IMG/VR virus record: IMGVR_UViG_2821904334_000002
DNA length: 64,000 bases
Reading direction: 5' to 3' (one strand)
Origin: an uncultured virus (IMG/VR IMGVR_UViG_2821904334_000002)
Lineage: Duplodnaviria > Heunggongvirae > Uroviricota > Caudoviricetes
A program made the position numbers and the translations under genes. Below, piece by piece: positions 1 through 62,937 of the stretch. Every line of letters starts with the position of its first letter. Position 1 is the first letter of the stretch. The notes beneath the pieces were generated by a model. It was not told where the DNA came from, ran no database searches, and saw only the letters and a program-made list of their open reading frames with translations.

Positions 1-465
1 CAGATTACAACTCACCCTTTAAACTATGAACTAGATTTATCAAGAGGTATTTACATTTCATCTAAGGTAAACATATCAGATAGTACACTAATTACAGATG
101 AAGTATTCTTAAAAAGAATTAAGAAACTAGTACATTGCGGATTAATTAGAGCCTACAAAGTAAACGAAGGGGTAGTACGATTCTACATTTCGATTTTCGG
201 TAGTGAGTTATACAAGCAAAACGCTGAAAAGTATAAACAACAATTATCAGAAACAAACTTAGCAGGTATTGATGGATTACTTGAAAATTCAGTAGGAGTA
301 TCCAAGAGAACTTCTTCTACCGCAAAGCATCATAAAAAGAAACCACATACAAAGGGTTCTTACAAAGGTAAACAGCCATATAAGAAGAAACCGTATCAAG
401 GAAAGTCAGATAGTACGCAAAAACCGAGCAAACCTCATTATAAGAAAGATGATAATACAAAATGA
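1..465 (+). CDS. hypothetical protein, 5'-truncated by window edge; Lys/His/Pro-rich basic C-terminal tail
   Basis: Frame 1 open from base 1 to TGA at 463-465; tail KHHKKKPHTKGSYKGKQPYKKKPYQGK. Confidence 0.7.
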   Translation, partial: QITTHPLNYELDLSRGIYISSKVNISDSTLITDEVFLKRIKKLVHCGLIRAYKVNEGVVRFYISIFGSELYKQNAEKYKQQLSETNLAGIDGLLENSVGVSKRTSSTAKHHKKKPHTKGSYKGKQPYKKKPYQGKSDSTQKPSKPHYKKDDNTK

Positions 466-635
466 GAGGTTTAGAGATATTATTTCTCGTATTCGTTGGA
501 ACGGTATTACTATATGTGTTTAGTAATTCATGGGGTTGGAGTCAAGAAGTAAAAAGACTCGTTATATTTGGGATTACGGTTCTTACAATGATAGGAACAG
601 TAATCGGAGTAGTGATTTACGGAATACACATCTAA
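462..635 (+). CDS. small membrane protein (2 predicted TM helices)
   Basis: Read manually: MRGLEILFLVFVGTVLLYVF...IYGIHI; ATGA overlap with upstream stop. Confidence 0.55.
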   Translation: MRGLEILFLVFVGTVLLYVFSNSWGWSQEVKRLVIFGITVLTMIGTVIGVVIYGIHI

Positions 636-673
636 GGGTTAAGATGTGGAAACAAAAGAGGTGAGCAAGAGAC

Positions 674-835
674 ATGCCAACAATGTTAATATATGCGTAT
701 ACATTATCAGTTTTGATTTTCGTATTCATGTTATGGACGAAGATGGAGACTACAAAGTTTAAGAAGGTATTCTTAACAGGGGTAATTGGTGCTTCCTTAT
801 ATGCATTAAACTATTTCGGTTTATTCTATAGCTAA
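674..835 (+). CDS. small membrane protein
   Basis: SD GAGGTG upstream; MPTMLIYAYTLSVLIFVFMLW... Confidence 0.55.
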   Translation: MPTMLIYAYTLSVLIFVFMLWTKMETTKFKKVFLTGVIGASLYALNYFGLFYS

Positions 836-896
836 GGGTTAAGTTATAGACGAGTAAACGTAAAAAGAAACTATGGAGAGTATAGGAGTGTTTATC

Positions 897-1094
897 ATGA
901 AAGCAGAATACACAGTACACATTTTAAAACTGGGTTTAGGGTTCATGCTTGCAACATCTATCATAATCGGTTTAGTAAAGAACTTTAGTGTTAGTCCAAT
1001 AGAAGTCATTGCATTATTCGTTTTGATTTTAATTACACCTAAAACAAATTTAGCTTGGAAAGACCTAGTAGCTGTTTGGAATGGTCGAAAATAA
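897..1094 (+). CDS. small membrane protein
   Basis: ORF track; start moved to ATG after SD GGAGTG; two hydrophobic segments. Confidence 0.55.
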   Translation: MKAEYTVHILKLGLGFMLATSIIIGLVKNFSVSPIEVIALFVLILITPKTNLAWKDLVAVWNGRK

Positions 1095-1344
1095 GATGGG
1101 AAAAATGACACCACCACTCGGCATAACAGGGTACAGAAAACCTGTTACAAGAAAGTTAATGAGACAGCTAGTAGAAGAGAACAAATTTCATTTTATTACA
1201 GGTTATTCTCCAATCATATACAAACCGGAGTTAGGGTTATATGTTTGTCATATGGATGAGAGATACGATAATAAAACAGTAGAGGAACTTTGGGAAGTAT
1301 TAAGGGGTAGTAGAGGAGGAAGACAGTTATGCTATCAGGATTAA
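1081..1344 (+). CDS. hypothetical protein
   Basis: ORF track, overlapping operon arrangement. Confidence 0.55.
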   Translation: MVENKMGKMTPPLGITGYRKPVTRKLMRQLVEENKFHFITGYSPIIYKPELGLYVCHMDERYDNKTVEELWEVLRGSRGGRQLCYQD

Positions 1345-1658
1345 AACGGATATTCAAGCCAAACAAACAAGCAATGAAAGAGAAAGATATCATTATAAAC
1401 ATTAAAGTTATGCAAAAAGATAGAAAGAAATTAGAAACTGAAAGAGCATTAAAAATAGATGAAATGTGCGAAGCGGTTAAAGGTATATCAAAAGAAAACA
1501 AAGATGAAGTAAGTACAAAACTAACAAAAGATATTATGGAAATTAACGCACAAATTGACCCGAAAATTGAAGAGTGTAACTTACGTATCCAAGAGCAAAT
1601 GGATAAAGCAAGATATTTAAAACTAGATGTAGGGTACATAGAAGAAATGGTAAGCTAA
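1329..1658 (+). CDS. coiled-coil hypothetical protein (~110-aa family)
   Basis: SD GAGGAGG; helical charged sequence. Confidence 0.65.
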   Translation: MLSGLKRIFKPNKQAMKEKDIIINIKVMQKDRKKLETERALKIDEMCEAVKGISKENKDEVSTKLTKDIMEINAQIDPKIEECNLRIQEQMDKARYLKLDVGYIEEMVS

Positions 1659-1859
1659 CTAGATGGGATTCTTAACAGACTTTATTATTTTATCTACAGT
1701 ACCAAGTGTGGCATTATTACTAACAAAGAAGTTTCCAATGAAACTAAGAATTGTATTAGTTATTAATATGGGTTATTATCGTAGTTTTTATGCTAAACAC
1801 GGAAGCATATAAAGTAGACGGATGTTTAAAAGGTTGTAAATAAGAGAGGGGTAGTTACA

Positions 1860-2198
1860 ATGAATACAGAAACTCAATCTATGCATTTATTAGAAAAGGC
1901 AGTAGAACAGAAGGTCAAACTACTATTAACAAAGCAAGAAGAACAGAGACTTATTGAAATTGAAAATAACTATTTAAGTTTAAACGGATTACAATTAGAC
2001 GTACCAAGCGTTTTAGTACATACAGAGAAAACATTAGAGATAAGAAAAACATACGCAAACAAAATAAAAGAAATAGGAAAACAGTACGAGAAAGTAATGC
2101 TTCTACTAAATGCGATGTATCCGAACAAAGAAGAATTAGAGAGAGCGATTAATAATGAAACGGTAAAAGCATACCAGTTAGGAAAGTATACACTATAG
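1860..2198 (+). CDS. coiled-coil hypothetical protein (~110-aa family)
   Basis: Resembles 2522..2851 (TLEIRKTYANKIKEIGKQYEKVM vs TVQVQEMYNRNIEKEYASYKAIL). Confidence 0.65.
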   Translation: MNTETQSMHLLEKAVEQKVKLLLTKQEEQRLIEIENNYLSLNGLQLDVPSVLVHTEKTLEIRKTYANKIKEIGKQYEKVMLLLNAMYPNKEELERAINNETVKAYQLGKYTL

Positions 2199-2213
2199 AA
2201 GGGGTAGAAAACT

Positions 2214-2525
2214 ATGTTAAACTTTACAGAAGCGGTAGTAAAGCATATACAGAAACATATTAATATAATAAAAGACATTAATGCAGAAGAAGAACGAGTA
2301 ATTACAGATTTAAAGTTTGTAATAGAATCAAATAGGAAAGTAAACGACATGTTAGGGGTATTTGAAGCAGAAGAAAAGTTATTAAACAAAAGATTAGAAT
2401 TTAATAACCAAAAGAAAACAGCATGGTCAAATTTACAATCAGTTGTTTCACTTGCAAGTGATTTAGATGTAGAATCACAAATGAAACAAATGATTGCTTC
2501 TATTTTAGAAGGTAAAGGGTTATGA
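2214..2525 (+). CDS. coiled-coil hypothetical protein
   Basis: ORF track, SD AAGGGGTAG. Confidence 0.65.
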   Translation: MLNFTEAVVKHIQKHINIIKDINAEEERVITDLKFVIESNRKVNDMLGVFEAEEKLLNKRLEFNNQKKTAWSNLQSVVSLASDLDVESQMKQMIASILEGKGL

Positions 2526-2851
2526 CAAATAAGGAAAGTATTATAAACGCTTTAGTAAGATGTCATAATGCAATTGTTCAGTTAAAGGAACTAGAAAAGT
2601 TAAGAAAAGAAGCGATAGAAGTTGATTCTTCTAATTTAAACTTAGATTATATCATGAAGAAACATAATGAAACGGTACAAGTACAGGAAATGTATAATAG
2701 AAACATTGAAAAAGAGTATGCAAGTTATAAGGCGATATTAAAACTAGCAGAAGAGTTGGGGTACAGTGAGAAAGAGTTAAAGCATAAAAGTAAATTAAAA
2801 GTAGAAGAGTTAACTAAGTCAGCAGAGAAAGGGGTAGGAAGTAATGACTGA
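2522..2851 (+). CDS. coiled-coil hypothetical protein (~110-aa family)
   Basis: ORF track; ATGA overlap. Confidence 0.65.
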   Translation: MTNKESIINALVRCHNAIVQLKELEKLRKEAIEVDSSNLNLDYIMKKHNETVQVQEMYNRNIEKEYASYKAILKLAEELGYSEKELKHKSKLKVEELTKSAEKGVGSND

Positions 2852-3734
2852 GGTACATAAGTGCAATAACGGTCAAAAGTTTGATAAACAACAAAGAAAA
2901 CTAGTTCCATGTGAAATATGTAAACGAGAACGTAAAAATGAAGTACGTGATGGAATTTTAAATGAACAAACTGGTAACCGTGAATCACTATCTGTTCATT
3001 TAGGTATTGACCAAAGATACGTTTCAGATATGTATAGTCCTGATACAATCATTGGTAAAACAGACTTATACTACCTCGAAGACAACTCTGTACATGAGTT
3101 TAATGCAGTAGTAGAAGCGATAATGGCTGGTCTAACTGGTGGTCAATTACCTACAACTTCATTTGTTATGTATGCAGGTCGTCATGCTGAGTTACAGAAA
3201 CTAGCTTATTGTTTCTTAGCGTCAGCGTATAAAGGGTTATTAACAGTAGGTAGAGTTCTAACAGCTAGAGAGATTCGAGTAAACAAGTATAAAGAAGATT
3301 TTGATGAGTATTATAAGAAAGATATAATTGTAGTTATTATGACAGATGACGCAGATAGCGTAACTTTTGGAGAGGTTCAAGGGTTTATGCAAGAGCGTTC
3401 ATTAAACAACAAACCTACAATTGTATTATTAAGTAATCGTAGGAACTTTACATTAACAATCGGTAGACTTTGTAGTTTAAGTGAAGAAAGATATGATTTA
3501 GGGGTATTCATCGGTGTGAACTACAAGCAAGGTTTAGATATGTCAGAAGAAACAATCAAAATTGCTACAAAAGCCTTTAAAGTATCAAATGAAACATTAG
3601 GAACAACTCAAAGGTTAGAAGATATTATGAGAATACCAAATGAGAATCTAAAGACTACAGATGCGGAAATGCAGTCATTTGATATGGAGAAGTTCACAAA
3701 AGGAAATCTAAACTTCAATGGTAAAGGAAGCTAA
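2844..3734 (+). CDS. DnaC/DnaI/IstB-like helicase-loader-fold protein with degenerate Walker motifs
   Basis: N-terminal Cys cluster (HKC...PCEIC); FMQERSLNNKPTIVLLSN matches the DnaC/IstB R...KPTIxTSN signature; Walker A position reads YAGRHAELQKLA. Confidence 0.55.
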   Translation: MTEVHKCNNGQKFDKQQRKLVPCEICKRERKNEVRDGILNEQTGNRESLSVHLGIDQRYVSDMYSPDTIIGKTDLYYLEDNSVHEFNAVVEAIMAGLTGGQLPTTSFVMYAGRHAELQKLAYCFLASAYKGLLTVGRVLTAREIRVNKYKEDFDEYYKKDIIVVIMTDDADSVTFGEVQGFMQERSLNNKPTIVLLSNRRNFTLTIGRLCSLSEERYDLGVFIGVNYKQGLDMSEETIKIATKAFKVSNETLGTTQRLEDIMRIPNENLKTTDAEMQSFDMEKFTKGNLNFNGKGS

Positions 3735-3736
3735 GT

Positions 3737-4000
3737 ATGTTAAACTATGTAGTATCTCATATGGTTACAATTTCTTGGATAATTAGTTTCTATTTCTTTA
3801 TTGACTCGTTAATACAATTAAACAACAAAGAAAAGAGAAAAGAAGAAGAATTTAACAAAATGGTAGGGAAGAGTCATAAAGACCTATTTACAGATTTCGC
3901 ACTTAAAACACTAGTTCTGCTCTCAATAGGGGTATTTGGTATCTACACGGATATGTTTGAAACAGCAATTAAATCTTTACTAAACTTTAATCTATATTAA
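3737..4000 (+). CDS. small 2-TM membrane protein, paralog of 4162..4431
   Basis: Hydrophobic ends; YTDMFETAIKSL vs TTDGFAYTVHAL. Confidence 0.6.
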   Translation: MLNYVVSHMVTISWIISFYFFIDSLIQLNNKEKRKEEEFNKMVGKSHKDLFTDFALKTLVLLSIGVFGIYTDMFETAIKSLLNFNLY

Positions 4001-4161
4001 GGAGGGGTATTAGTGGAAAACTTATTAACTAGTTTTCCATTTTCTTTTGTCTTTTTAGTTGTGCTTACATACACAATATTTTCAATGTTTTCAATGAAAG
4101 ACATGAAGAGAATGGATGAAGAACACTTTAAATTACCTGTAAAACAGAAAGAAGGGTTATA

Positions 4162-4431
4162 ATGGAATTCGTATATGTACTTAACTCTATATTCGTTATA
4201 GGGGTATGGGTTATTACACTTAAAACTTGTATTTCTTTCTTGAAAACATTATCTTTCAATAAGAAAGTAATAGACAAGGAACAGGGGTATGAAGAGAAAG
4301 AATTATTAAATGTAGAAAACAGTCAAACGAAAGTAAAGAACCAGTTAATATTCTTTGTCGTTATTACCGCTTTATACGTAACTACAGATGGTTTTGCTTA
4401 TACTGTTCATGCATTACGTAATTTGTTTTAG
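4162..4431 (+). CDS. small 2-TM membrane protein
   Basis: ORF track, hydropathy pattern. Confidence 0.6.
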   Translation: MEFVYVLNSIFVIGVWVITLKTCISFLKTLSFNKKVIDKEQGYEEKELLNVENSQTKVKNQLIFFVVITALYVTTDGFAYTVHALRNLF

Positions 4432-4472
4432 TTTCCTATCATTGCTATACTAAAAGATATGTAGTAACTTAT

Positions 4473-4501
4473 TTGACAAATAAAGAACTCTATGTTATAA
4501 T
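4473..4501 (+). promoter_or_regulatory. sigma-A type promoter
   Basis: TTGACA-N17-TATAAT with extended -10 TG. Confidence 0.85.
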
Positions 4502-4541
4502 AAATTTATAAGTTAAAGCAATTACATATAAGGGAGAGATT

Positions 4542-4790
4542 ATGATGAATGTAGTTCAATTATTAACGGGTAAAAACGTAAAAGGTTTATATAAGATTAC
4601 GCATTCAATTAGTGAGTCATGGATTGGAGCAGTAGTAAACGTACAAGAAGATACAGACATACATGAAGGTAAATATCGTTACATTATTGTTAAAGGTGTA
4701 GAAGACCAATCAATAAACCATGTAGTAAACAATGCATTACCTTTAGTGGGTGCAGTAACTACAGCTGAGTTTGAAAAGGTTGGAGAGTAA
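4542..4790 (+). CDS. hypothetical protein, paralog of 4792..5055
   Basis: NNALPLVGAVTTAEFEK vs NSKLPLVDAVLSADFIK. Confidence 0.7.
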   Translation: MMNVVQLLTGKNVKGLYKITHSISESWIGAVVNVQEDTDIHEGKYRYIIVKGVEDQSINHVVNNALPLVGAVTTAEFEKVGE

Positions 4791-4791
4791 T

Positions 4792-5055
4792 ATGAGAATT
4801 TTAACAATTATAGATGTTATTCAAACTGGTATAATCGGAGATAAGTTTCGTATTATTGATTCAACTAATATAGATTGGGTAGACTTACAAATTACCATTT
4901 CAAAATCATCTGAACCTAAAACTGAATCATCAAAAGATATTACTATAACTGATTTACCGATGGGTTGGTCAAGTGGTTTTGAGTTAAACTCTAAATTACC
5001 TTTAGTAGATGCAGTTTTATCAGCAGACTTTATAAAAGAAGAAATAAAAAACTAA
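4792..5055 (+). CDS. hypothetical protein
   Basis: Start moved to ATG 4792 after GGAGAG; paralog of preceding gene. Confidence 0.7.
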   Translation: MRILTIIDVIQTGIIGDKFRIIDSTNIDWVDLQITISKSSEPKTESSKDITITDLPMGWSSGFELNSKLPLVDAVLSADFIKEEIKN

Positions 5056-5058
5056 AGT

Positions 5059-5091
5059 AAGAAGGGGTAAATAACTCCTTCTTTTCTTTTT
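5059..5091 (+). terminator. intrinsic terminator
   Basis: AAGAAGGGGT/ACTCCTTCTT stem followed by T-rich run. Confidence 0.6.
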
Positions 5092-5116
5092 AACTAAGAA
5101 GGGAGAGAAACAAGAA

Positions 5117-5407
5117 ATGGAATGTCCATATTGTAAAGGAAATTTAGACTATAATACTACATGGTATACAGGGTTGTATGGGAGAGAAGACTATCAAGAA
5201 AGAGGTATTGAGTATAAGTGTCCAAACTGGCAAGGTTTCAGTGACGAGGGAGAAAGGCAAGCTTATATAGAAAGAAACAATATAGTAGTAGGTAAAGACC
5301 AAGAATTTAAAACAGTTGAAGAAGTTATTTGTAAAAGCCATGAAGAGTGTAACGGTGATTTTTATACAGACGGAAGTGAAGAACTGATACAAGGAAATCC
5401 ATGTTAG
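5117..5407 (+). CDS. Cys-rich (zinc-ribbon-like) hypothetical protein
   Basis: CPYC...CPN...C...C. Confidence 0.65.
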   Translation: MECPYCKGNLDYNTTWYTGLYGREDYQERGIEYKCPNWQGFSDEGERQAYIERNNIVVGKDQEFKTVEEVICKSHEECNGDFYTDGSEELIQGNPC

Positions 5408-5419
5408 GGGTAGAAGACA

Positions 5420-5800
5420 GTGAAGTTGAAAGCAGTAGTAATAGAAGTAATAGAGGAAACATTAGAAGTAAGTAAAACAGTAGTCTATTTAGAACCAAAC
5501 ATACATGATAACATTAGTAAAGTAGGTATAAACCAGTTAGGTTGGTTCAATAGTATAAAAGAAACTTCTGTACATGAAAATATTATCGCTTTAACAGAAG
5601 AAAATGGTACGTATACAAAGAAAACCTATTTCTCACCAAACTATCCAAAACCTACAGTCGGGTTTGTATACGGAAAAGCCTTATTTGTAGGGTTAAACGA
5701 AGAAGGAGAGTATGTCGCTTTAACAAACGAGCAAATACACCTGATAATGAATTACATACCTATTCTTTCAAAAGGTGTAAACCTTCTATATCAAGAGTAA
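5420..5800 (+). CDS. DUF3846-like protein
   Basis: GKALFVGLNEEGEYVALTNEQI resembles the DUF3846 C-terminal G..f.g.d.eG...sLt.eqi pattern. Confidence 0.55.
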   Translation: MKLKAVVIEVIEETLEVSKTVVYLEPNIHDNISKVGINQLGWFNSIKETSVHENIIALTEENGTYTKKTYFSPNYPKPTVGFVYGKALFVGLNEEGEYVALTNEQIHLIMNYIPILSKGVNLLYQE

Positions 5801-55580: not shown

Positions 55581-57473
55581 ATGTCAGTTGAAGAATTAAA
55601 AGACCAAGAAGTACATGGTGATGAAGAAGATTTTGAAGATGAAGACGAACTTATCGAAGAAGAAGACGATGAGGAAATCATCGAAGAGGAAGACGATGAA
55701 GAACTAGATGACGATGATGACGAAGAGGAATTCATTGAAGAAGACGAGGACGAAGAGTTCGAGGAAGAAGATGAAGACCTAGAGGAAGATGATGAGGATT
55801 TCGAGGAAGAGGACGAAGACCTTGACGAAGAAGATGATGAGGAATTGGAAGAAGACGAAGATGATTTAGATGAAGACGAACTTGATGATTCTGAAGACGA
55901 AACTATCGAAGAAGACGAGGATGAACATCTAACGTATGAAGAAGATGGTCAAGAAGTCGAAGACGAACCTGTTATTGGTGAAGGTATGTTTCAACCAGTA
56001 GAAGAACCAAGTGAAGTATTCATACAAAACCCTTCTGTTGATTTAGGAAGTGGTATTACTTTAGATGCTCCAACTGATGAAAAACCGCTACCTAAAGTCG
56101 TATTAGAAAAGAACATGGATACAGACGAAATTGAAGATTCTGAGTCTCGTGAAACATTGAGTTTACTAAGTAGTACATCTGAAACGTTATCTGATATGGG
56201 TATAGAAAAGGAAAATTACACGCTAACTTACGTAAATAATATCAAACTTACGAAAATAGCGATTAGTGAGCCAATGAAGAAAGGTAGAGCATCGACAATT
56301 GTTGGTTTAACGAAGTCAGTCGGTGAGTTAGGGGTAGTAACGCCAATTCACTTAATGAAACTAGAAACCGCAGACGAAGATGAAGATTCAGACATGCCTG
56401 CTTATCAAACCATTGATGGGTTAAGACGTATCTACAGTTCTGTTAAGAATAATTTAGAAACAATTCCTGCAATTGTTTGGGACTTTAGAGATAAACAGAA
56501 AGGTAGACAAGCCGCACTTATCTTAGGTCTTACACTAAACCGTCAACAAAAGAGAACATGGTCTGAGATTTGGGATTTATATACTATCTTAGAACGTCAA
56601 ACTCAAATTAAGCCGAATACATTTGAGTCTCTCTTCCAGTTAGAGGGCGGAGACGCTATGAAGTTAAAAGACGTAGTTCTAAGTGAATATACAGAAGTAA
56701 AAGAAGAGTTGTTCTCTAATGAAAAGACTCTAGAACAATGTTATAAAAACTTACAAAAGCTACGTAAAGAAGAAAATACATTAGAGATTGAAGACCAAAC
56801 TGGTTTCGCTGAAACAAGTGATATGGCAAAAGATGTAGTAGAAGGGGAAGAAAAACCTGAGGTTCAATTATCTAATGATGAAGTATTAGCTATCCTTGAA
56901 ATGGGGGAAGCATTAGATAAAGAGATAAACCCTGATGATTTTGGCAGTATGGGTGATATGTTTGGGGAAGTTACACATCAAGATGTGAAAAACCGTAAAC
57001 CAGTTGACCCAATAATCAAACAGCAGACTTTAGCTAGAGATGACTACCGTTGTAGATGTTGTGGAACTGGTGGGAAAGCCTTCTTATCTACGATAATTTT
57101 CCACCACATCGTTCCTGTTCATGCAGGTGGACCGGATACTGTAGCTAACGGTTTAACACTTTGCGACTCTTGTCACATCACACTTCATGTAATAGAACGA
57201 AACGGTAGACTTCCTCTTACAGAAGAAGAGTTTAAAGAGTATGAACCAGAAGACCAATGGAGAATCAAGAATATCCTTCATTATGCTCGAATTGCTATCA
57301 TGGCAGGTAAGAATAAAGGTCTAACTGACGAACAAAGAAAAGAATTAGCTAAATCAGGTACAAGACATCGTATGCCAGGTGAAGGAAACAAAGAAAATCA
57401 ACAAGGTTTTGCTTTATATGAACAAAACTTAGCAGAAGCAGACAAAGTGGAAGAAGAAAATACAGCATCTTAA
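55581..57473 (+). CDS. acidic-tract / ParB-Srx-like / HNH endonuclease fusion protein
   Basis: ~120-aa D/E tract; LTKSVGELGVVTPI...TIDGLRRI...IPAIV; LARDDYRCRCCG...HHIVPVHAGGPDTVANGLTLCDSCH. Confidence 0.85.
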   Translation: MSVEELKDQEVHGDEEDFEDEDELIEEEDDEEIIEEEDDEELDDDDDEEEFIEEDEDEEFEEEDEDLEEDDEDFEEEDEDLDEEDDEELEEDEDDLDEDELDDSEDETIEEDEDEHLTYEEDGQEVEDEPVIGEGMFQPVEEPSEVFIQNPSVDLGSGITLDAPTDEKPLPKVVLEKNMDTDEIEDSESRETLSLLSSTSETLSDMGIEKENYTLTYVNNIKLTKIAISEPMKKGRASTIVGLTKSVGELGVVTPIHLMKLETADEDEDSDMPAYQTIDGLRRIYSSVKNNLETIPAIVWDFRDKQKGRQAALILGLTLNRQQKRTWSEIWDLYTILERQTQIKPNTFESLFQLEGGDAMKLKDVVLSEYTEVKEELFSNEKTLEQCYKNLQKLRKEENTLEIEDQTGFAETSDMAKDVVEGEEKPEVQLSNDEVLAILEMGEALDKEINPDDFGSMGDMFGEVTHQDVKNRKPVDPIIKQQTLARDDYRCRCCGTGGKAFLSTIIFHHIVPVHAGGPDTVANGLTLCDSCHITLHVIERNGRLPLTEEEFKEYEPEDQWRIKNILHYARIAIMAGKNKGLTDEQRKELAKSGTRHRMPGEGNKENQQGFALYEQNLAEADKVEEENTAS

Positions 57474-57535
57474 AAGGGTAGGAGACTATCTCTTTTCTTG
57501 CTGAAATTTTAGGGGACAATGGAGGAACAATAATA

Positions 57536-58006
57536 ATGAATAAAGAGTTTGAGTTTAAGGGTGCAGGGAAATCTAAGATAGTAATAGACGGTAATTTCAT
57601 TCGTATATCTCGAAAAGGATTTATGAACCTTATGAACCACGGTCTAGGCGGTGAGAAAGTAATAGACCTAAATAACGTAACAGGTGTTCAAATGAAGAAA
57701 GCAGGTTTTACAAACGGCTATATTCAGTTTATCTTTGTAGGTAGTCAAGAAAGTAAACGTGGAGTATTTGCAGCAACTCAAGATGAAAATACTGTTATGT
57801 TTAGTAAGAAAGAACAACCTAAAGCAGAGGAAATTAAGAAGTATGTAGAAAACTTCCTAGCTAACAAAAGCAAACCACAAGTTGCAAGTACAATAGAGTC
57901 AGTTAGCGTAGCTGACGAAATTGTAAAGTTAAACGATTTAAAAGAAAAAGGTATTCTTACAGAAGAAGAATTCCAATCAGAGAAAAAGAAGCTATTAGGT
58001 TTGTAA
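57536..58006 (+). CDS. DUF4429 (PH-like) plus C-terminal SHOCT domain protein
   Basis: GEKVIDLNNVTGVQMKKAGFTNGYIQF; ADEIVKLNDLKEKGILTEEEFQSEKKKLL. Confidence 0.85.
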   Translation: MNKEFEFKGAGKSKIVIDGNFIRISRKGFMNLMNHGLGGEKVIDLNNVTGVQMKKAGFTNGYIQFIFVGSQESKRGVFAATQDENTVMFSKKEQPKAEEIKKYVENFLANKSKPQVASTIESVSVADEIVKLNDLKEKGILTEEEFQSEKKKLLGL

Positions 58007-58028
58007 TAGCAAGAAGGGGTAGATAAAC

Positions 58029-58271
58029 ATGGCAAGAACGAACTGGGTTAAGCAACCAAACTTTGAACAATATCACAGTCACCACATTACAATAGAACAT
58101 TATGGTGAGAAAGTACCAGTATATACAATCTTACTAAACCCACAGATTGGTAGATATGTAATAGGTAGTTTCTATGCATTTACGAGTGAATATACACCAT
58201 TCCAACCACATTTAAACTTCGGTACTGTAGCAGAAGCAAAGAAATATATTGATTCAAACTACAACAAGTAA
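58029..58271 (+). CDS. hypothetical protein
   Basis: ORF track. Confidence 0.6.
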   Translation: MARTNWVKQPNFEQYHSHHITIEHYGEKVPVYTILLNPQIGRYVIGSFYAFTSEYTPFQPHLNFGTVAEAKKYIDSNYNK

Positions 58272-58725
58272 GTGAGAAAGCCACCTTATAATAAAACATA
58301 GGGTGGTCTTCTTTTAAACGATAAGGAGGAAAATACTATGTTTTCAAAACGAATGATACTATTCTCGATTCTATCTATGTTAAGTCTAGCAGTCATTATA
58401 GACTATAATAGAGTAGGCGGTAGAAGTTTAATTCACGGATGTTTACTAGCTATCATAGGTTTAGTATTTGTAGTAGTGTTTACAAATAAAGCCAAGAAAG
58501 ACCAATAGAAACAGCTAAGACAGAAGAAAGAGGTCATCTATGAACGAGAGAGGTAAGTTAGCTTGTCTAATAGCAGGGGTATTCGCACTAGGTCATTTAT
58601 TCAGTTATTGGTTAATTGGTAGTCTAAACTTAGTATCTTTTATCCTATCTGTACTAGGAGGGGTAGCAGGGTTTTGGGTACTGGCTAGACTAGAAGGTGT
58701 AATATAAATAATAGGAGGAATAAGA

Positions 58726-58908
58726 ATGAAGAAAACAGAAGTAGTTTCAGCAGTTTGTTTCTTTTTGGTTGTAGTCGTATCAAACTTACTATTAGAAGCC
58801 TTATTTGATAATTTAGAGTTATCTATTGTAATTAGTGTAGCGTTAGGTATCTTAGTATACTACGGTTTTGATATGAAGAACAAAGAAGTAACTACACAAG
58901 ACGGATAG
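58726..58908 (+). CDS. small 2-TM membrane protein
   Basis: SD AGGAGG; hydropathy. Confidence 0.6.
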   Translation: MKKTEVVSAVCFFLVVVVSNLLLEALFDNLELSIVISVALGILVYYGFDMKNKEVTTQDG

Positions 58909-58937
58909 CTTGTGTAACAGGGTAAGGAGGGAAGTTT

Positions 58938-59138
58938 ATGTGGAAGAAAAGCATAGACTATTGGTATCCAATCCTAGCAGGTGGCGTTATGGGTGTTCTT
59001 TTAGGAGATACGTTATTCGAATCTGAACTGATTGGTGCTATGTGGGGTATGGCGATTGGTTTAGCATTTATACCAAGTATCAAACCAAAAAGTAAGAAAA
59101 GGGAAGATGAGGAAGAGGAAGAAAAGAGGATTTTATGA
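58938..59138 (+). CDS. small 2-TM membrane protein
   Basis: SD AAGGAGG; Gly-rich TM helices. Confidence 0.6.
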   Translation: MWKKSIDYWYPILAGGVMGVLLGDTLFESELIGAMWGMAIGLAFIPSIKPKSKKREDEEEEEKRIL

Positions 59139-59503
59139 CAGCAAGACAATACAAAGAAGTAGGAAGAACATTAAGAGTACAGAGAAAGCAACAAGGTTTA
59201 TCCTTAGACTCTGTATCAAAAGAAGTAGGTATCAGTATAAACTACCTTTCTGAGTTAGAGAAGGGAGATAAAGGAAAAGTACCTTCTGATTCTATTCTTC
59301 AACGGTTAGTATCCGTATTAGACTTAAACGAGAAAGAGTTATACATGGGTTTTGGAAAGATTCCCTTATCGGTAGTAGAAGAGTTACAAAGTAATGAGAA
59401 ACTATTAAGTACACTATATGGAGTTATTCATAATCCAAATGTAGTAAAAGAAGACTTCTATAATGATATGCAGAAACTATACTTTCAATACGCAAGCAGT
59501 TAA
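59135..59503 (+). CDS. XRE-family helix-turn-helix transcriptional regulator
   Basis: GRTLRVQRKQQGLSLDSVSKEVGISINYLSELEKG...PS. Confidence 0.88.
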   Translation: MTARQYKEVGRTLRVQRKQQGLSLDSVSKEVGISINYLSELEKGDKGKVPSDSILQRLVSVLDLNEKELYMGFGKIPLSVVEELQSNEKLLSTLYGVIHNPNVVKEDFYNDMQKLYFQYASS

Positions 59504-59537
59504 AGGGGTAGGTCATGAGACTTATCCTTTTTATTTT
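59502..59537 (+). terminator. intrinsic terminator, near-duplicate of 60790..60823
   Basis: AAAGGGGTAGGTC-ATGA-GACTTATCCTTT. Confidence 0.75.
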
Positions 59538-59635
59538 AGACATATCTAGTATTTTTATGAAAAATGTGGTATAATAGGAAGGTAAAACCAATCCAAACCT
59601 ACGCAGTAGTAGGGACATAAACAGGAGGTACTGTT

Positions 59636-60784
59636 ATGAAAACGAAAACAGATGAATTAAACGTGGTAAGTGAATCACAAAAGGATTTGATTGCATGGGA
59701 ACAAGCAACAGAGGATAGTTTTGTTGTAAAAATAAAACCTATAAAATCTAATGAAAACGATAAGTTATGGCGATGGAATAAAAGTAAGTTGGACTACGCA
59801 TTAAGAAGATTAAAAGGTACATCTAGAGACTTAGGTAGTTTTCCATCATTTCCATTATCACCAGTATTAAAAGAAGTAAACTTAGATATAGATAAAATAA
59901 ACCGATATAGAAAAGAAGTAGAAGAGTTTCCTACTTTTACGTTAGAAGCAATGAAACTACTACATAAAAAAGTGTCTAGTCATTCTTACAAAGAAAGACT
60001 GAAACAATCTTTATTAGAAGAAGTTAAGTTTTTATTTACTTTCAAACAAACACCTCATACACCAGAAAACTTATCATTAACGAATGAAGAAGTAATAGAT
60101 TACTTATTTGAGAGTAGTCCTAACGGTATGATTGAAATTAAACAAGGTATTGTAGATGGTGTTTACAGAATATCAAGAGAAGACTACAATAAGTACAAAG
60201 AGTATAAAAAGAAGAAAGACCAATTAATTCATTTAGATAAACTATTTTCTGAATTAAGCTTTAGTATGTTAGAAGAGGTAGACGGTAATGTTTACTTACC
60301 TATAAACTACCATACAAAAGACTTTATAAAGTTAGAGAAAAATCAATCTCTATTAAGACTTACACTAAGTATGATAGACAATAAGAGTAGTTTAACAAGT
60401 GACAGAAAAGATTTAAAAATAAACCATAGACAAGTTACTGGAAACTTAATTAGTAAAAACATGATGTATTTTTCTAAGTCTCCTTTTGTTGATGTAACTG
60501 ATATATCTTTTAACAAAGACAATATAGAATTATCTTTATTATGTGAGTCAGGAAAAGAACAGTCTATTATCAATAAAATGGTAGGAGACGGTTTTGTTAT
60601 CGGTGACTTATATGAGAGTAATTATTTCTTGAGTTTAGATATAGACTATAGTGTAGGGCAAGAAAATGAGTATTCTGAATGGTATTGTTTCCTGTACGGT
60701 AAACGTTATAAATGGTTAAAAGATATATTTATTAATACAGACGAATACTTTATGGGTTATAAACTGTATACATTAGAGAAGTAG
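59636..60784 (+). CDS. family E paralog 1
   Basis: LPINYHTKDFI, LSLLC. Confidence 0.75.
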   Translation: MKTKTDELNVVSESQKDLIAWEQATEDSFVVKIKPIKSNENDKLWRWNKSKLDYALRRLKGTSRDLGSFPSFPLSPVLKEVNLDIDKINRYRKEVEEFPTFTLEAMKLLHKKVSSHSYKERLKQSLLEEVKFLFTFKQTPHTPENLSLTNEEVIDYLFESSPNGMIEIKQGIVDGVYRISREDYNKYKEYKKKKDQLIHLDKLFSELSFSMLEEVDGNVYLPINYHTKDFIKLEKNQSLLRLTLSMIDNKSSLTSDRKDLKINHRQVTGNLISKNMMYFSKSPFVDVTDISFNKDNIELSLLCESGKEQSIINKMVGDGFVIGDLYESNYFLSLDIDYSVGQENEYSEWYCFLYGKRYKWLKDIFINTDEYFMGYKLYTLEK

Positions 60785-60789
60785 TACAA

Positions 60790-60823
60790 AAAGGGGTAGG
60801 TCATGAGACTTACCTCTTTTCTT
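60790..60823 (+). terminator. intrinsic terminator
   Basis: AAAGGGGTAGGTC-ATGA-GACTTACCTCTTT. Confidence 0.75.
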
Positions 60824-60833
60824 TACCCTATAC

Positions 60834-60862
60834 TTGACAAATCAAGAAACTTATGTTATAAT
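60834..60862 (+). promoter_or_regulatory. sigma-A type promoter
   Basis: TTGACA-N17-TATAAT. Confidence 0.85.
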
Positions 60863-60897
60863 AGTATTATAGTAAATGAGAGAAAAATACATAAGGA

Positions 60898-61965
60898 GTG
60901 TTGAAAATGGCAAGTAGAGAGCAGAGTTATGTAATTTTAGTTACGAAAGATACAGACGTAAAGGAATTAGAGAAAAACTTTCCTGATATTAAATCAAACG
61001 CTGATTTATTAGAGGGTACAGTACATTTGCAAAGAAAAGTCGTAGAAGTAAACTGGGAATACTACAATCAATTAATAAAAACGAGTAATGATTATAGAGA
61101 GTCAGAAGAGTTTAAATCAATAGAAAGAGTTTACACAAAACTTTATCATTCTGTAATGAGTAGAATCACGCATATCACATTTGATTTAGATTTAAGAAAA
61201 CTAGGGTATGAAGGATGTACTACAGATTTCAAAGAAGTGTTAAACTTTATTATCAAAGAGAACATGACATTAAGTACTCAAATTCCATTAGAAGGTGGAG
61301 AAACAACAGAACAGGTATTAGTTACCGCAGAACAATTACAAAAGTATCTAACGTATGCAGAAACTTATGGTATTGGCATTACAAGTATGAATTTAATTTC
61401 TGAGTTAAGTGGGTACAAACCAGAAAATAAAGAAAATAGTTCAGAATTAGACTTCACAAATGCACCAAAACGATTAGCATTGCCAATTAATCATGTAACA
61501 AAGAATTATGTTACATTTGAAGAGGATAAGACGTTAATCAGTTTTAAATTAGTTACAAACGGTGAAGTAGAGACATTCTTAAACAGACTCCTAACATTTG
61601 TAGATACAGACTATGGTTTAGAAATTGTAGACTTGCAAAAAGCGTATGAAAAAGTACACGAAAATGATTTTGTTTATTTTAACTTACTTTGCAATGAAAA
61701 AGCAGAGTCAGACGTAATACGTTTGGTATTGAGTTTGATTCGAGAAACAGTTAATTTAAGCCCATTACAAGAAACTACAGCGATATCTATCTTAGTTCAA
61801 AGAGGGATAGACAAGTTAATTACGTCAGAAAGCAAATATTACTTTGTAACTGGTAAAGGCTATACACATGTTTCAAAAGGTGAATACAATAACATGGTAA
61901 ATCAGTACAAAGAACATTTAACGCAAACAAATGCAAGTCTATTCGGATATGCAACATTCATGTAA
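60898..61965 (+). CDS. family E paralog 2
   Basis: LPINHVTKNYV, FNLLC, LFGY. Confidence 0.75.
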   Translation: MLKMASREQSYVILVTKDTDVKELEKNFPDIKSNADLLEGTVHLQRKVVEVNWEYYNQLIKTSNDYRESEEFKSIERVYTKLYHSVMSRITHITFDLDLRKLGYEGCTTDFKEVLNFIIKENMTLSTQIPLEGGETTEQVLVTAEQLQKYLTYAETYGIGITSMNLISELSGYKPENKENSSELDFTNAPKRLALPINHVTKNYVTFEEDKTLISFKLVTNGEVETFLNRLLTFVDTDYGLEIVDLQKAYEKVHENDFVYFNLLCNEKAESDVIRLVLSLIRETVNLSPLQETTAISILVQRGIDKLITSESKYYFVTGKGYTHVSKGEYNNMVNQYKEHLTQTNASLFGYATFM

Positions 61966-61980
61966 GGAGGAAGAAACGAT

Positions 61981-62937
61981 ATGTCAAATGCTATTTTAAT
62001 AGATACACAACATAATACAGAACTTATTTTTCAACTGTCTCAATTATGTAATAAACTGTATCCTTCAAAAGTAGTAGAAAGAAGAGGCACGTTTCCAATT
62101 CGTTCAGACATGAAGATTACCTATACAGAACATGAGAAATTTGAAGCAACTTCTTACTTTTCTAAAGAGGAATACAAAGAATATCAGAAGTATTTAGAAT
62201 TACGTAGTAAAATTCGCACACTTGCTATTTATGATAAGGTAAACCAAGAATTAAAGGTAGACTTGGTTCTTCCAAACCCGTATACCGATGCTTGCATTGA
62301 TTTCATTATTTTAGAACTACTAAAACAAGGTAATGGTGAAAAGTGGGTTTGTCTAGACGATAAAGTGTACGTGTTGAAAGCAGAGTCCGTACACCGTATG
62401 GATAAGTTCATTCGTATAAGAAAGTTACTAGATGAAGGGTATCGAATTATTGAACTTCTAAAACGAGAAAACGGAGTTGGGTATGAAAACATTCCAATCA
62501 ATCGTTTTACACTACCTTTCATAGCAAACAAAAATGTAGAGTTCATGAACGATGTTTTATATAGTTTCACATTCCCAAGGGGTAGTAGAACGGAGTTGTT
62601 CTTACAAAAGTTCTTTACGAAGTTTGATGGGTTTGATAGTTTGAAAGTAACTGATTTCTCAGAGTCAGAAGACTTTATCTTCCTTGATTTGTTATCTTCT
62701 CCTTTACGTGAACGAGAAATTCAATTTCTATTTCAGGATATTATTTATGAAACGGAAGGGAATACAATAGAGGATTATTTTGTAATGGTTCAAACACAAA
62801 AGGTGAATCGAGAAATAACAAATGTAGAAAGTTACTTCTTATTAGAAGGTAATCTAATACATCAGGTAGAAAACATAGAGCCATTCGTTACAGACATGTT
62901 TGGTTTCCCAACTTATGTACTGAAAGACGAATACTAA
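61981..62937 (+). CDS. family E paralog 3
   Basis: IPINRFTLPFI, LDLLS, MFGF. Confidence 0.75.
   Translation: MSNAILIDTQHNTELIFQLSQLCNKLYPSKVVERRGTFPIRSDMKITYTEHEKFEATSYFSKEEYKEYQKYLELRSKIRTLAIYDKVNQELKVDLVLPNPYTDACIDFIILELLKQGNGEKWVCLDDKVYVLKAESVHRMDKFIRIRKLLDEGYRIIELLKRENGVGYENIPINRFTLPFIANKNVEFMNDVLYSFTFPRGSRTELFLQKFFTKFDGFDSLKVTDFSESEDFIFLDLLSSPLREREIQFLFQDIIYETEGNTIEDYFVMVQTQKVNREITNVESYFLLEGNLIHQVENIEPFVTDMFGFPTYVLKDEY

Follow-up and report, generated by a model that had tools for sequence, protein, structure and literature searches.

What purpose is served by a short G-rich word that runs, on one strand, through a 64,000-nucleotide stretch of DNA (the window) filed in IMG/VR as an uncultured virus? 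The initial annotation had counted 58 exact copies of GGGGTAG on the + strand, where only a few would be expected from base composition, and had found no CTACCCC. On exact recount GGGGTAG was present 59 times on the + strand and was absent from the - strand, which upholds the strand exclusivity and leaves the earlier figure one short; CTACCCC was indeed absent (0 copies) from the + strand of the window, and all 25 positions offered as examples recurred in our copy list. None of 100 dinucleotide-preserving shuffles reached 59 copies (mean 3.46, sd 1.83, maximum 9), in keeping with the expectation of a few. The core of the word was the 6-mer GGGGTA, with 122 copies on the + strand and 1 on the - strand, and the consensus of the array was W-GGGGTA-K. 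The base 5' of the core was A in 90 and T in 27 of the 122 copies, and the base 3' was G in 59, T in 45, A in 15 and C in 3. The window contains 161 runs of GGGG, of which 131 were followed by T and 122 by TA. Gaps between copies averaged 525 bp, with a largest gap of 2017 bp (37957 to 39974); the density of about 1 per kb first reported was too low, the true core density being about 2 per kb. With respect to gene context, 31 copies lay in Shine-Dalgarno (SD) position, 2-7 nt before a start codon, 8 were intergenic, and the intragenic copies fell in the frame GGG-GTA (53), in frame 1 (17) and in frame 2 (13). No report of the GGGGTA motif was found in the literature searched. Features of the window are presented in Table 1.

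Table 1. Features of the window relevant to the GGGGTA array.
Feature	Position	Strand	Basis
GGGGTA array, 122 copies (59 = GGGGTAG)	169..63682	+	exact counts, synonymous-shuffle enrichment
Sole reverse-oriented GGGGTA (TACCCC on +)	54776..54781	-	exact count
Dual-use example, GGGGTAG 5 nt before ATG 1860	1848..1862	+	one of 31 SD-position copies
Terminator-like hairpin, motif = 5' arm, 3' arm CTACCTC via G-U pairs	6632..6662	+	folding
Terminator-like hairpin, motif in 5' arm, then T-run	59502..59531	+	folding
Terminator-like hairpin, motif in 5' arm, then T-run	60789..60820	+	folding
Type II topoisomerase (GyrB-like 10092-12272, GyrA-like 12550-14787)	10092..14787	+	Pfam/PHROG-type matches
DnaB-like replicative helicase	15639..17102	+	Pfam DnaB_C + DnaB, PHROG 19
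DnaG-type CHC2 zinc-binding protein, 190 aa; candidate reader	26003..26575	+	Pfam Zn_ribbon_DnaG, E 1.6e-11
291-aa protein, conserved neighbour of zinc-domain gene	26621..27496	+	invariant LGLDISK..IEDAF..D..D columns, 27 sequences
NAD-dependent DNA ligase	44454..45926	+	domain matches
ParB_N+HNH protein	55581-57473		conserved in G001-G003

Of the matching PLSDB records, 10 of 10 aligned with 87% of the region 10000-30000 of the window at 90.7% identity, and the full window aligned to pXO16 over 56.8 kb at 89.5%. pXO16 (pBTHD789-1 / pAM65-52-2-350K) is a 350-kb aggregation-mediated conjugative plasmid of Bacillus thuringiensis sv. israelensis, and shares with the window the gene order GyrB, GyrA, DnaB, paralogue array, zinc-domain protein. 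The window is part of a giant conjugative plasmid of the pXO16 type and, since the two sequences are about 10% apart and some segments have no alignment, this is a distinct plasmid of that type. A classical phage reading was rejected, given this close relationship to a conjugative megaplasmid that has itself at most been called phage-like. It has already been published that every gene of pXO16 runs in one direction and that its 350 kb are handed over as ssDNA in conjugation (PMC6199540); its oriT and relaxase have yet to be identified (PMC9673590).

pXO16 carries the same word, with GGGGTA at 657:5 over the whole circle, 12-27 copies per 10 kb in all bins and no polarity switch; GC skew was positive in 35 of 35 bins, and AGGGGTAG was found at 232:0. 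Copies were spaced more evenly than chance, with a gap CV of 0.71 compared with 1.00 ± 0.04 for random placement, a largest gap of 2071 bp (3753 bp for random placement) and only 7 gaps below 50 bp where 59 were expected. Density was 1.5-1.9 per kb across all gene-length classes, and one 10.6-kb gene held 16 copies. On pBtic360, a plasmid that resides alongside pXO16 in the same strain, sense-strand GGGGTA was not enriched (43 copies vs 42 ± 5.8) and GGG preceded GTA in only 25 of 140 cases. This absence of enrichment supports the conclusion that GGGGTA is an element-specific cis-signal and not a host effect; of the "phage-specific cis-signal" initially suggested, the specificity held and the phage did not.

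Enrichment within genes was measured against a codon- and dipeptide-preserving null of 300 shuffles in which the amino-acid sequence was fixed and synonymous codons were permuted, with gene ends trimmed so that downstream SD sites were excluded. Inside window genes GGGGTA was observed 80 times (18.0 ± 3.8 expected), AGGGGTA 52 times (6.6 expected) and GGGGTAG 33 times (4.2 expected), and these words ranked top among all 6- and 7-mers. Glycine was encoded mostly by GGT (613) and GGA (291), as had been remarked earlier, with GGG at 180 and GGC at 50; immediately before GTA, GGG was used in 54 of 90 glycine codons. In pXO16 every reading frame was enriched, with 315, 83 and 80 copies observed vs 52, 33 and 10 expected. 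Of the window copies that could be aligned to pXO16, 91 of 113 were intact, compared with 57% across all 6-mers, which placed GGGGTA 5th of 324 6-mers for in-place conservation. The third position of GGG diverged in 8 of 50 codons within the word and in 38 of 100 elsewhere (p=0.008). No significant difference was seen for the third position of GTA (2 of 49 in the word vs 62 of 636 elsewhere, p=0.30), or when the glycine third position in the motif was compared with all other glycine codons (p=0.48). Enrichment in all three frames, its survival of the synonymous shuffle and the reduced GGG divergence inside the word together support selection that targets the nucleotide word and not the protein, as had been supposed from the sequence at the outset.

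The metagenome relatives and the window together formed 21 lineages, in 19 of which the GGGTA core was at least 2-fold enriched on the sense strand. The top 7-mer contained GGGTA in 32 of 36 metagenome loci, with flanking bases that varied by lineage; the enrichment was not shared by G003, which has its own word GGTAYCGC, or by L167. The reverse word was observed 5 times vs 11.7 expected in pXO16, 10 vs 2.4 in G001 and 6 vs 2.7 in G002. Across the family, candidate opposite-strand genes came to just 3.5 kb, and these held 1 copy in each orientation vs about 11 expected. As all genes lie on one strand, polarity with respect to replication and to transcription is inseparable in this family.

Some copies served a second role. 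The share at SD position was 31 of 122 in the window and 89 of 657 in pXO16 (13-25%), so the earlier observation that the motif is built into SD sites was borne out; most intragenic copies had no start codon behind them and are not SD sites of unannotated starts. Hairpins bearing the motif were rare (5 of the 122 window copies). The three that had been noted as terminator stems, at 6637, 59505 and 60793, folded as described with predicted energies of -14 to -19 kcal/mol, and their 3' arms are not CTACCCC because they pair with the motif arm through G-U pairs. GGGGTA is best explained as a strand-specific DNA signal, present at about one copy per 0.5 kb and kept by selection.

It is highly improbable that the word is a functionless by-product of composition skew and context-dependent mutation bias of the element's family A DNA polymerase. 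The element has a polymerase gene of its own, which makes a private mutation spectrum conceivable, and all G-rich words are polarised here (GGAGG 45:2 in the window), but such a bias does not account for the 4-8 fold enrichment over a null that keeps codon usage, for the conservation in place of those 91 copies with reduced divergence inside the word, for the under-dispersed spacing with too few close pairs, or for the rarity of GGGG without a following TA (39 of 161). An RNA-level word, GGGGUA, is rather unlikely; it would be SD-like or protein-binding and act in ribosome standby, in mRNA stabilisation (STAB-SD) or as a site targeted by a ribonuclease or RNA-binding protein. Every copy, being on the sense strand, is transcribed, those at SD distance point the same way, and GGGGU could pair with the anti-SD through one G-U pair. 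Most copies, however, lie within ORFs with no start codon after them, copy density is independent of gene length, and the host genes of pBtic360 have no such bias. G001 and G002 have canonical GGAGGT SDs, yet GGGTA(T) is enriched genome-wide in both, and the variants GGGTATG, GGGTACT and GGTAYCGC are not SD-like. Even spacing on a DNA scale, over gene borders, would also be unexpected for a per-transcript signal.

A directional guide or recognition word for conjugative DNA translocation, KOPS/SRS-like or uptake-sequence-like and read on the transferred strand by an FtsK/SpoIIIE-like ATPase or another transfer protein, is unlikely but deserves consideration. KOPS (E. coli FtsK) and SRS (B. subtilis SpoIIIE) are, like the element's word, G-rich (7-8 nt), strongly polarised and genome-wide, and the family encodes an FtsK/SpoIIIE-domain protein (pXO16 852-3182), of which G001-G003 keep homologues at 24-37% identity. 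pXO16 is transferred as ssDNA, strict one-way polarity and the lack of long gaps would suit a non-reversing motor, and uptake sequences have a density similar to that of GGGGTA; that of KOPS is much lower. The FtsK gamma domain, the known KOPS reader, was not found in pXO16, G001, G002 or G003 by a search that matched 8 of 14 control genomes. The polarity of KOPS and SRS converges on dif; the pXO16 circle, by contrast, has neither a switch nor a convergence point, and the reverse word, which as the non-permissive orientation should be avoided, is not consistently so in pXO16, G001 and G002. We know of no need for sequence guides in relaxase-led ssDNA export. It is improbable that the word regulates a helicase-nuclease (host AddAB or similar) in the manner of Chi and so protects linear or rolling-circle intermediates, even though Chi sites of RecBCD/AddAB are likewise short, polarised and over-represented and the G-rich GGGGTA has a Chi-like density. 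On rolling-circle plasmids a single Chi orientation is useful for sigma-type replication, and a UvrD-like helicase is part of the conserved backbone. Against this, no enrichment of GGGGTA was seen in the tested host background, including pBtic360; in 3 Bacillales genomes AGGGGTAG is scarcer than its reversed-word control; and AGCGG, the Chi word of B. subtilis, is not enriched on pXO16 (83 vs 147 expected). Chi words vary among Firmicute genera, whereas the GGGTA core is common to 19 of 21 lineages from varied samples, tracking the element family and not the host; spacing, unlike that of Chi, is regular, and no AddAB-like gene was found among the 23 backbone proteins scanned. We give an equally low probability to a strand-specific mark or cut site, either a non-palindromic methyltransferase target (self-mark) or the site of a nicking enzyme such as the ParB_N-HNH protein, with T5-like single-strand nicks. 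GGGGTA is non-palindromic, the ParB_N+HNH protein is conserved in G001-G003, and pXO16 107220-107609 gave a borderline N6_Mtase match (20.6 bits vs a cut-off of 20.4), but no methyltransferase was found family-wide (PF01555 in G002 only, PF02384 borderline in pXO16 only), restriction/modification targets are usually avoided rather than enriched, and the even 0.5-kb spacing of a mark would be left without reason. Among the functions that the initial annotation had offered, KOPS-type guidance is short of both its reader domain and a polarity switch, Chi finds no support in the host background tested, and priming appears to fit best.

Our tentative preference, at somewhat less than even confidence, is that GGGGTA may mark where a DnaG-type primase encoded by the element starts on the strand that is copied discontinuously, like GGGTC of T7. 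The candidate reader matches the zinc domain of G. stearothermophilus DnaG (1D0Q, 3e-6), with which it aligns including FHCFGCGAGG, and Aquifex DnaG (2AU3); the longer proteins homologous to it are full DnaG primases. Its gene adjoins that of the 291-aa protein, whose invariant pattern we take to be RuvC/RNase-H-like, in 22 of 22 family representatives. This neighbour had no Pfam match and no PDB sequence match, and is not the catalytic part of the primase. Besides a family A polymerase, a clamp loader, a ligase and a 5'-3' exonuclease, pXO16 encodes a Toprim_2 protein, whose gene is separate from the zinc-domain gene and lies 128 kb away from it. The primase would consist of the zinc protein and a Toprim_2 protein from a separate gene elsewhere on the plasmid, a presumed partnership, and would ride on the DnaB-like helicase, whose nearest homologues are named from Bacillus cereus (95% identity) and B. 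toyonensis. We infer that this primase reads the word, and likewise the direction of replication and the template strand.

Template specificity of primases is set by the zinc domain, and the sites described are 5'-GTC-3' and 3'-CTGGT-5', with flank effects, for T7 and CTA/TTA for Firmicute DnaG (PMC6136900, PMC9198812, PMC5204125). In the accounts of T7 primase the zinc-binding domain is the reader and flanks modulate use (PMC6136900, PMC9198812), as is proposed here. The productive pentamers of T7 gene 4 primase include 5'-TGGTC-3' and 5'-GGGTC-3'. The form shared with the element is G-G-G-T and then one unread 3' base, on a single-stranded template, and T7 also resembles the element in having its genes all on one strand. 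The unread base is C in T7 and would be A in the element, whose primase would be DnaG-type and apparently split over two genes. T7 sites occur at about chance on both strands (GGGTC 39 on + and 55 on - vs 38 and 32 expected; TGGTC 79/62; gap CV 0.92), with no comparable enrichment or polarity, whereas in the element the word shows 4-8 fold enrichment, is confined to one strand and is evenly spaced. The Firmicute DnaG trinucleotides end in TA like GGGGTA, and 5'-CCC-3', used by C. difficile and Aquifex, lies within its complement; for C. difficile, PMC5204125 describes primase trinucleotides as biased between the strands in parallel with GC skew. Known DnaG sites are 3 nt long and frequent without selection, unlike GGGGTA. 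Characterised primases need just 3-5 nt, and to our knowledge genome-wide selection for a primase word has no precedent. Because this DNA is AT-rich, GGGGTA would arise by chance just about every 6 kb; given that rarity, selection would have written the word into codons, SD sites and terminator stems.

Under the primase reading, a 5'-GGGTA-3' template would yield the primer pppACCC with the A unread, modelled on T7, where 5'-GGGTC-3' yields pppACCC; the silent 3' A is also modelled on Firmicute DnaG (5'-CTA/TTA-3'). The first two bases of bacterial DnaG primers are described as purines (PMC5204125), with which the + strand reading is at odds since its primer begins pppAC. A - strand reading (5'-TACCCC-3' giving a GGGGUA primer) fits the two-purine start and is just as possible, which leaves the model flexible on this point. 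The NAD-dependent DNA ligase would seal Okazaki fragments. Replication would be unidirectional and co-directional with transcription, making the sense strand the lagging-strand template everywhere; alternatively, the sense strand may be the strand passed as single-stranded DNA in conjugation. Either way, the sense strand would need repeated priming.

GGGGTAG was present 59 times on the + strand of the window and never on the - strand, against 3.46 ± 1.83 copies (maximum 9) in 100 dinucleotide-preserving shuffles; the initial annotation had counted 58 and none, and all 25 of its example coordinates were right. The six-base core GGGGTA was found 122 times on + and once on -, and 122 of the 161 GGGG runs continued as TA. 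With A or T ahead of the core in 117 copies and G or T behind it in 104, the consensus is W-GGGGTA-K. The window has 33% G+C, with a strong excess of G over C and of A over T on the + strand throughout, and is tiled by 117 ORFs (91% coding), all on +. Within ORFs lay 83 of the 122 copies, 53 as GGG-GTA, 17 in frame 1 and 13 in frame 2; 8 were intergenic, and 31 sat 2-7 nt ahead of a start codon. Glycine was encoded by GGG in 180 of 1134 codons overall versus 54 of 90 directly before GTA, which bears out the earlier impression that GGG is preferred in Gly-Val pairs. In a synonymous shuffle of 300 rounds, which left all encoded proteins and pooled codon usage unchanged and in which gene ends were trimmed against the Shine-Dalgarno (SD) site of the next gene, 18.0 ± 3.8 intragenic copies of GGGGTA were expected and 80 were observed. 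AGGGGTA (52 versus 6.6) and GGGGTAG (33 versus 4.2) were likewise in excess, and no other words of the same length deviated more. The enrichment thus survived a null that preserves codons and dipeptides, as selection on DNA rather than protein had been proposed to require. The intragenic copies are also not SD sites of unannotated starts, because few of them precede a start codon that opens a frame.

The carrier of the motif was identified by database comparison. Megablast against 50,697 phage records gave no nucleotide match, a scan of IMG/VR for close relatives found none, and the DnaB-like helicase had no tblastn match among phages; the closest phage counterpart to the GyrB-like protein was 33% identical. 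A profile search of genome contigs with the helicase alignment found no relative, and a search of sequencing runs recovered at most 0.10 of the words among the 24 runs listed. Homologues of the helicase that were 95% and 70% identical were named from Bacillus cereus and B. toyonensis. For positions 10000-30000, ten PLSDB records aligned along 87% of the length with 90.7% identity, every one of them the plasmid of about 350 kb from B. thuringiensis sv. israelensis that is known as pXO16, an aggregation-mediated conjugative plasmid (PMC6199540). Window and pXO16 aligned over 56.8 kb at 89.5% identity with gene order in common. The same review describes one orientation for all CDS of pXO16, many paralogues, transfer of single-stranded DNA and a proposed phage-like nature without plaques, and a 2022 review (PMC9673590) describes its relaxase and oriT as still unidentified. 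Stop-to-stop frames of at least 150 aa on pXO16 numbered 251 on + and 20 on -, none of the latter convincing, which is the single orientation seen in the window; the tip and agr regions, for conjugative transfer and aggregation, lie outside the window. Two runs of adjacent similar-size ORFs (Table) are probably the tandem paralogue arrays reported for pXO16 in PMC6199540. Because of the ten PLSDB matches at 90.7% and the lack of any phage nucleotide match, the window is, as judged by sequence similarity, a distinct plasmid of the pXO16 type and no demonstrated phage, and the proposal of a phage-specific signal had to be dropped.

On the complete 349.6-kb pXO16 sequence AGGGGTAG occurred 232 times on one strand and never on the other, and GGGGTA 657 times against 5. 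Every 10-kb bin held 12-27 copies of GGGGTA, GC skew was positive in 35 of 35 bins, and no switch in the polarity of the word was found anywhere round the circle. The coefficient of variation of the gaps was 0.71 (the same for the window alone) versus 1.00 ± 0.04 for random placement, the largest gap was 2071 bp where the null averaged 3753 bp (5th percentile 2888), and gaps shorter than 50 bp numbered 7 where 59 were expected. All three reading frames were enriched (315/83/80 observed, 52/33/10 expected), and density was 1.5-1.9 per kb in all gene-length classes, with 16 copies in one 10.6-kb gene. Copies at an SD position, serving both as SD and as word, were a minority, amounting to the 31 in the window and 89 of the 657 in pXO16, and the rest had no start behind them. 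Because spacing is even, every frame is enriched, density is independent of gene length and only 89 of 657 copies are SD sites, the signal is set per length of DNA and not per gene.

Comparison of the window with pXO16 indicated that individual copies are conserved. GGGGTA was intact in 91 of 113 aligned window copies (80.5%) versus 57% for all 6-mers, ranking fifth among 324 6-mers with 40 or more occurrences, and divergence was 0.02-0.12 at motif positions versus 0.08-0.20 in the flanks. The third base of GGG differed in 8 of 50 in-motif codons versus 38 of 100 GGG codons elsewhere (p=0.008). The corresponding difference was not significant for GTA (2 of 49 versus 62 of 636, p=0.30), nor for the third base of glycine codons when those in the motif were compared with all others (p=0.48). 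Gly-Val and Gly-Tyr dipeptides reached 1.31 and 1.37 times expectation in pXO16, and selection for the word may therefore have nudged protein sequence too.

Host background was assessed using pBtic360, a 360-kb plasmid co-resident with pXO16 that carries genes on both strands. GGGGTA was present there in 55 + 54 copies versus 50 + 67 for the reversed word; sense-strand copies in 252 called genes numbered 43 versus 42 ± 5.8 under the synonymous shuffle, and GGG was used in 25 of 140 Gly-GTA pairs. In 3 Bacillales genomes AGGGGTAG was rarer than a control word. The B. subtilis Chi word AGCGG was not enriched on pXO16 (83 versus 147 expected). Since pBtic360 was flat, the three genomes had no excess and AGCGG was not enriched, the bias is, against the host background compared here, a property of the element and not of the host's translation or its sequence at large. 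An explanation by codon pairs, at the level of translation, was ruled out by the enrichment in all three frames together with this flat host-matched control. When 1.5 kb of pBtic360 was compared with a sample of 401 Bacillales genomes, 70% matches were obtained in two, and a scan with the VanY protein returned 80 loci, all from outside the B. cereus group.

A helicase profile led to three distant relatives among IMG/VR contigs, G001 (140 kb), G002 (225 kb) and G003 (158 kb, 46% G+C), with helicases 36%, 28% and 26% identical to that of the window. With pXO16 they have 65 of its 458 ORFs in common, largely in the same order, and all three are one-directional with uniform GC skew and no switch in word polarity. 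Relative to synonymous shuffles, G001 carried 278 copies of GGGTAT versus 94 and 147 of GGGGTA versus 49, G002 carried 295 of GGGTAT versus 140, and G003 carried 156 of GGTATCGC versus 15 and 60 of GGTACCGC versus 5.8, in all frames. The SD sites of G001 and G002 are the canonical GGAGGT. A metagenome scan with the gene of the RuvC-like neighbour (Table) gave 47 loci, of which the 36 of at least 12 kb were analyzed and 11 shorter ones excluded. Long ORFs were almost all on the query's strand in 35 of the 36, the exception (L205) having hardly any, and GC skew ranged from +0.17 to +0.40. The top 7-mer held GGGTA in 32 of the 36; the four exceptions include L164, where a CRISPR-like array dominates, and L196 and L199, where the GGGTA word ranks second. 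Across 21 lineages, comprising the metagenome loci, the window, pXO16 and G001-G003, sense-strand GGGTA reached 2.0-5.8 times the composition expectation in 19, with G003 (1.3) and L167 (1.2) as exceptions, and the reverse word stayed near expectation. Conservation in relatives, the lack of which would have told against the initial annotation, is therefore present. The flanks are lineage-specific (GGGGTAG, GGGTATT, GGGTATG, GGGGGTA, TGGGGTA and GGGTACT), the GGGTATG form being that of a group of 12 similar contigs of roughly 129 kb. Within this family pXO16 is the only studied member, the others coming from many metagenomes, gut samples included.

Three candidate opposite-strand genes were found in the family, in G002 and L175; their 3.5 kb carries 1 copy of the word per orientation versus about 11 expected, and recent insertion is their probable origin. 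With all genes of all members on a single strand, polarity linked to transcription and polarity linked to replication are inseparable. The only long opposite-strand ORF in the four full family records (G002, Table) has a composition atypical for the element and is nearly motif-free in both orientations; the N-terminus of its product looks like a secretion signal, and the ORF is probably a recent insertion. The 13.9-kb locus L205, of the GGGTATG lineage, has GGGTA at 58:1 yet almost no ORF of at least 150 aa on either strand, and may be an error-rich assembly or use a different genetic code. L164, a giant plasmid relative in the lineage of L163 and L185, appears to carry a CRISPR array (Table). 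Other short sequences were scarce. GATC was absent from the window (about 182 expected from composition) and present once in pXO16 (about 1004), with 25 versus 380 in G001, 123 versus 595 in G002 and 393 versus 554 in G003; in the pXO16 lineage, a GATC-specific restriction system seems to be strongly avoided. A6 occurred 9 times in the window versus 152 under the synonymous shuffle, runs of at least seven A were absent from the window (about 85 expected) and numbered 4 in pXO16 (about 488), and T5 runs were likewise depleted. Avoidance of slippage is one idea for the A runs.

Table. Positions of features in the window, pXO16 and relatives
Feature	Sequence	Coordinates	Description
Hairpin	Window	6632-6662	Motif as 5' arm
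Run of adjacent similar-size ORFs	Window	17252-25935	About 190-230 aa
Zinc-domain protein	Window	26003-26575	190 aa; DnaG-type CHC2 domain match; matches G. stearothermophilus DnaG 1D0Q
RuvC-like neighbour	Window	26621-27496	291 aa
Run of adjacent similar-size ORFs	Window	35521-40381	About 125-150 aa
Four adjacent multi-HTH proteins	Window	41099-44401	Several units each: TetR_N, HTH_23, HTH_7, many others
Hairpin	Window	59502-59531	Motif as 5' arm
Hairpin	Window	60789-60820	Motif as 5' arm
Borderline N6_Mtase match	pXO16	107220-107609	20.6 bits versus cut-off 20.4; within a 607-aa protein common to G002 only
Toprim_2 protein	pXO16	162086-162886	266 aa; outside window, seen in pXO16 only
Opposite-strand ORF	G002	122617-125151	844 aa
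CRISPR-like array	L164	17800-19450	Repeat of ~28 nt with AGACCCT, at least 14 times; period 61 bp in places

The window encodes a DnaB-like helicase, GyrB/GyrA-like subunits, an NAD ligase and a ParB_N-HNH protein. Elsewhere pXO16 encodes a family A DNA polymerase with 3'-5' exonuclease, a 5'-3' exonuclease, a clamp-loader subunit, a UvrD-like helicase and an FtsK/SpoIIIE-domain protein, most of which are common to G001-G003. The primase zinc domain is the one part of the conserved protein set whose class is known to recognize short, strand-specific words in single-stranded DNA. The replicon itself encodes this DnaG-type domain, and the Toprim_2 protein of pXO16 maps outside the window. Longer homologues of the zinc-domain protein are complete DnaG primases that also score with Toprim_2; the two parts, fused in bacterial DnaG, are separate genes about 128 kb apart in pXO16 and may form a split primase. 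In all 22 family representatives the zinc-domain gene directly precedes the RuvC-like gene. This neighbour was considered as the catalytic part of the primase and ruled out, having no PDB sequence match and conserved columns which we take to be RuvC/RNase-H-like. The multi-HTH proteins form an unusual cluster of DNA binders and could conceivably be alternative readers of the word.

On this basis we tentatively suggest, at somewhat less than even confidence, that the word may be the start site of the element's own DnaG-type primase. The zinc domain of primases mediates template recognition; T7 primase uses 5'-GTC-3', 3'-CTGGT-5' directing pppACCA, and its binding is altered up to ten-fold by flanks (PMC6136900, PMC9198812). 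Firmicute DnaG is described as starting at 5'-CTA/TTA-3', and that of C. difficile and Aquifex at 5'-CCC-3' (PMC5204125). The family core 5'-GGGTA-3' is shaped like the 5'-GGGTC-3' of T7, with A as the unread base. As with the GTC, CTA and TTA sites it would be a short core plus an unread 3' base, which is a resemblance only, and G003 uses GGTAYCGC. The complementary template 5'-TACCCC-3' is equally open as a reading. The T7 pentamers differ in occurring by chance about every 250 bp and without such polarity. Base composition predicts a chance GGGGTA on the sense strand only about every 6 kb, which under priming would account for selection on the density of copies and their regular spacing.

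If forks move with transcription, as is usual for Firmicutes, the sense strand would be the lagging-strand template round the whole circle. The excess of G over C on the sense strand would fit such forks, and the uniformly positive skew and co-oriented genes are compatible with a word on the template of discontinuous synthesis. Should the sense strand also be the transferred one, it would need repeated priming in the recipient before any gene could be read. SD sites and terminator arms would be cost-free places for the word. A wider proposal, which we regard as doubtful, is a private priming code of the whole family, in which a split DnaG-type primase needs a word of 5-7 nt (core GGGTA), the word recurs at intervals of about 0.5 kb on the single strand that undergoes discontinuous synthesis and perhaps conjugative transfer as well, this is partly why the genes face one way, and the flanks co-evolve with the zinc domain.

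A guide for transfer or translocation would suit an element that encodes an FtsK-like ATPase and is transferred as single-stranded DNA. The sequence-reading gamma domain (PF09397) was, however, found in 0 of 4 full family records versus 8 of 14 control genomes, and the convergence point of KOPS/SRS is lacking, the word running at 657:5 without a switch on pXO16 and likewise without one in G001-G003; we consider a guide unlikely. The spacing also bears on a signal acting in RNA, since it is independent of genes, and the variants are not SD-like while the relatives' SDs are canonical. Every copy is transcribed and a quarter of the window copies have an SD role, but such a signal seems rather unlikely. 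A hairpin or single-strand-origin structure was ruled out as the general signal, since of the window's 122 copies only 5, and of the 657 in pXO16 only 7, sit in strong hairpins. The three motif hairpins (Table) rely on G-U pairs in the 3' arm, CTACCTC being one example, so that CTACCCC is never seen there on the sense strand; with n=3 this may be chance.

A Chi-like site would be short, polarised and over-represented, as this word is. Such a site should be in excess in the host's own DNA, of which no sign was seen in the background tested (pBtic360 and the 3 Bacillales genomes), and the core tracks the element, which makes this reading improbable. About as improbable is a methylation or nick mark: the word is non-palindromic and the ParB_N-HNH protein conserved, but no methyltransferase common to the family was found in searches for two families, PF01555 being present in G002 only and PF02384 borderline in pXO16 only. 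That the word merely records a mutation bias of the element's own polymerase, which is indeed private to it, is very hard to credit, as copies are conserved by position and their spacing is under-dispersed.

The one-way gene orientation of pXO16 is already published, and a polarised over-represented word is a known kind of feature. No earlier report of the motif was found in literature on pXO16, primase sites and skewed words; the primary pXO16 sequence paper (Makart et al. 2015, Plasmid 80:8), outside that search, might mention it, and the available parts of the reviews PMC6199540 and PMC9673590 mention neither motif nor primase. What appears to be new is the word itself, together with its near-complete restriction to one strand, the regularity of its spacing and the fact that a large, mostly undescribed family of giant one-directional elements has conserved it. 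It is unusual in being exclusive to one strand at 657:5, evenly spaced and written through coding sequence against codon preference, and it is common to 19 of the 21 lineages examined of very large, one-directional plasmid-like elements, with flanks particular to each. Chi, KOPS/SRS and uptake sequences are polarised genome-wide words that each exposed a DNA machine. The present word provides an experimental handle, since oligonucleotides that carry it can be offered as substrates to the element's primase and its other DNA binders, and a marker by which family members can be recognized and oriented in metagenomes from sequence alone. It would be a clear example of synonymous positions held under constraint by a machine that the replicon itself encodes. 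If the priming code were true, sequence would by itself predict primase specificity, replication direction and family membership, and if priming is the function, this would be the first case known to us in which the specificity of a primase has visibly shaped a whole replicon.
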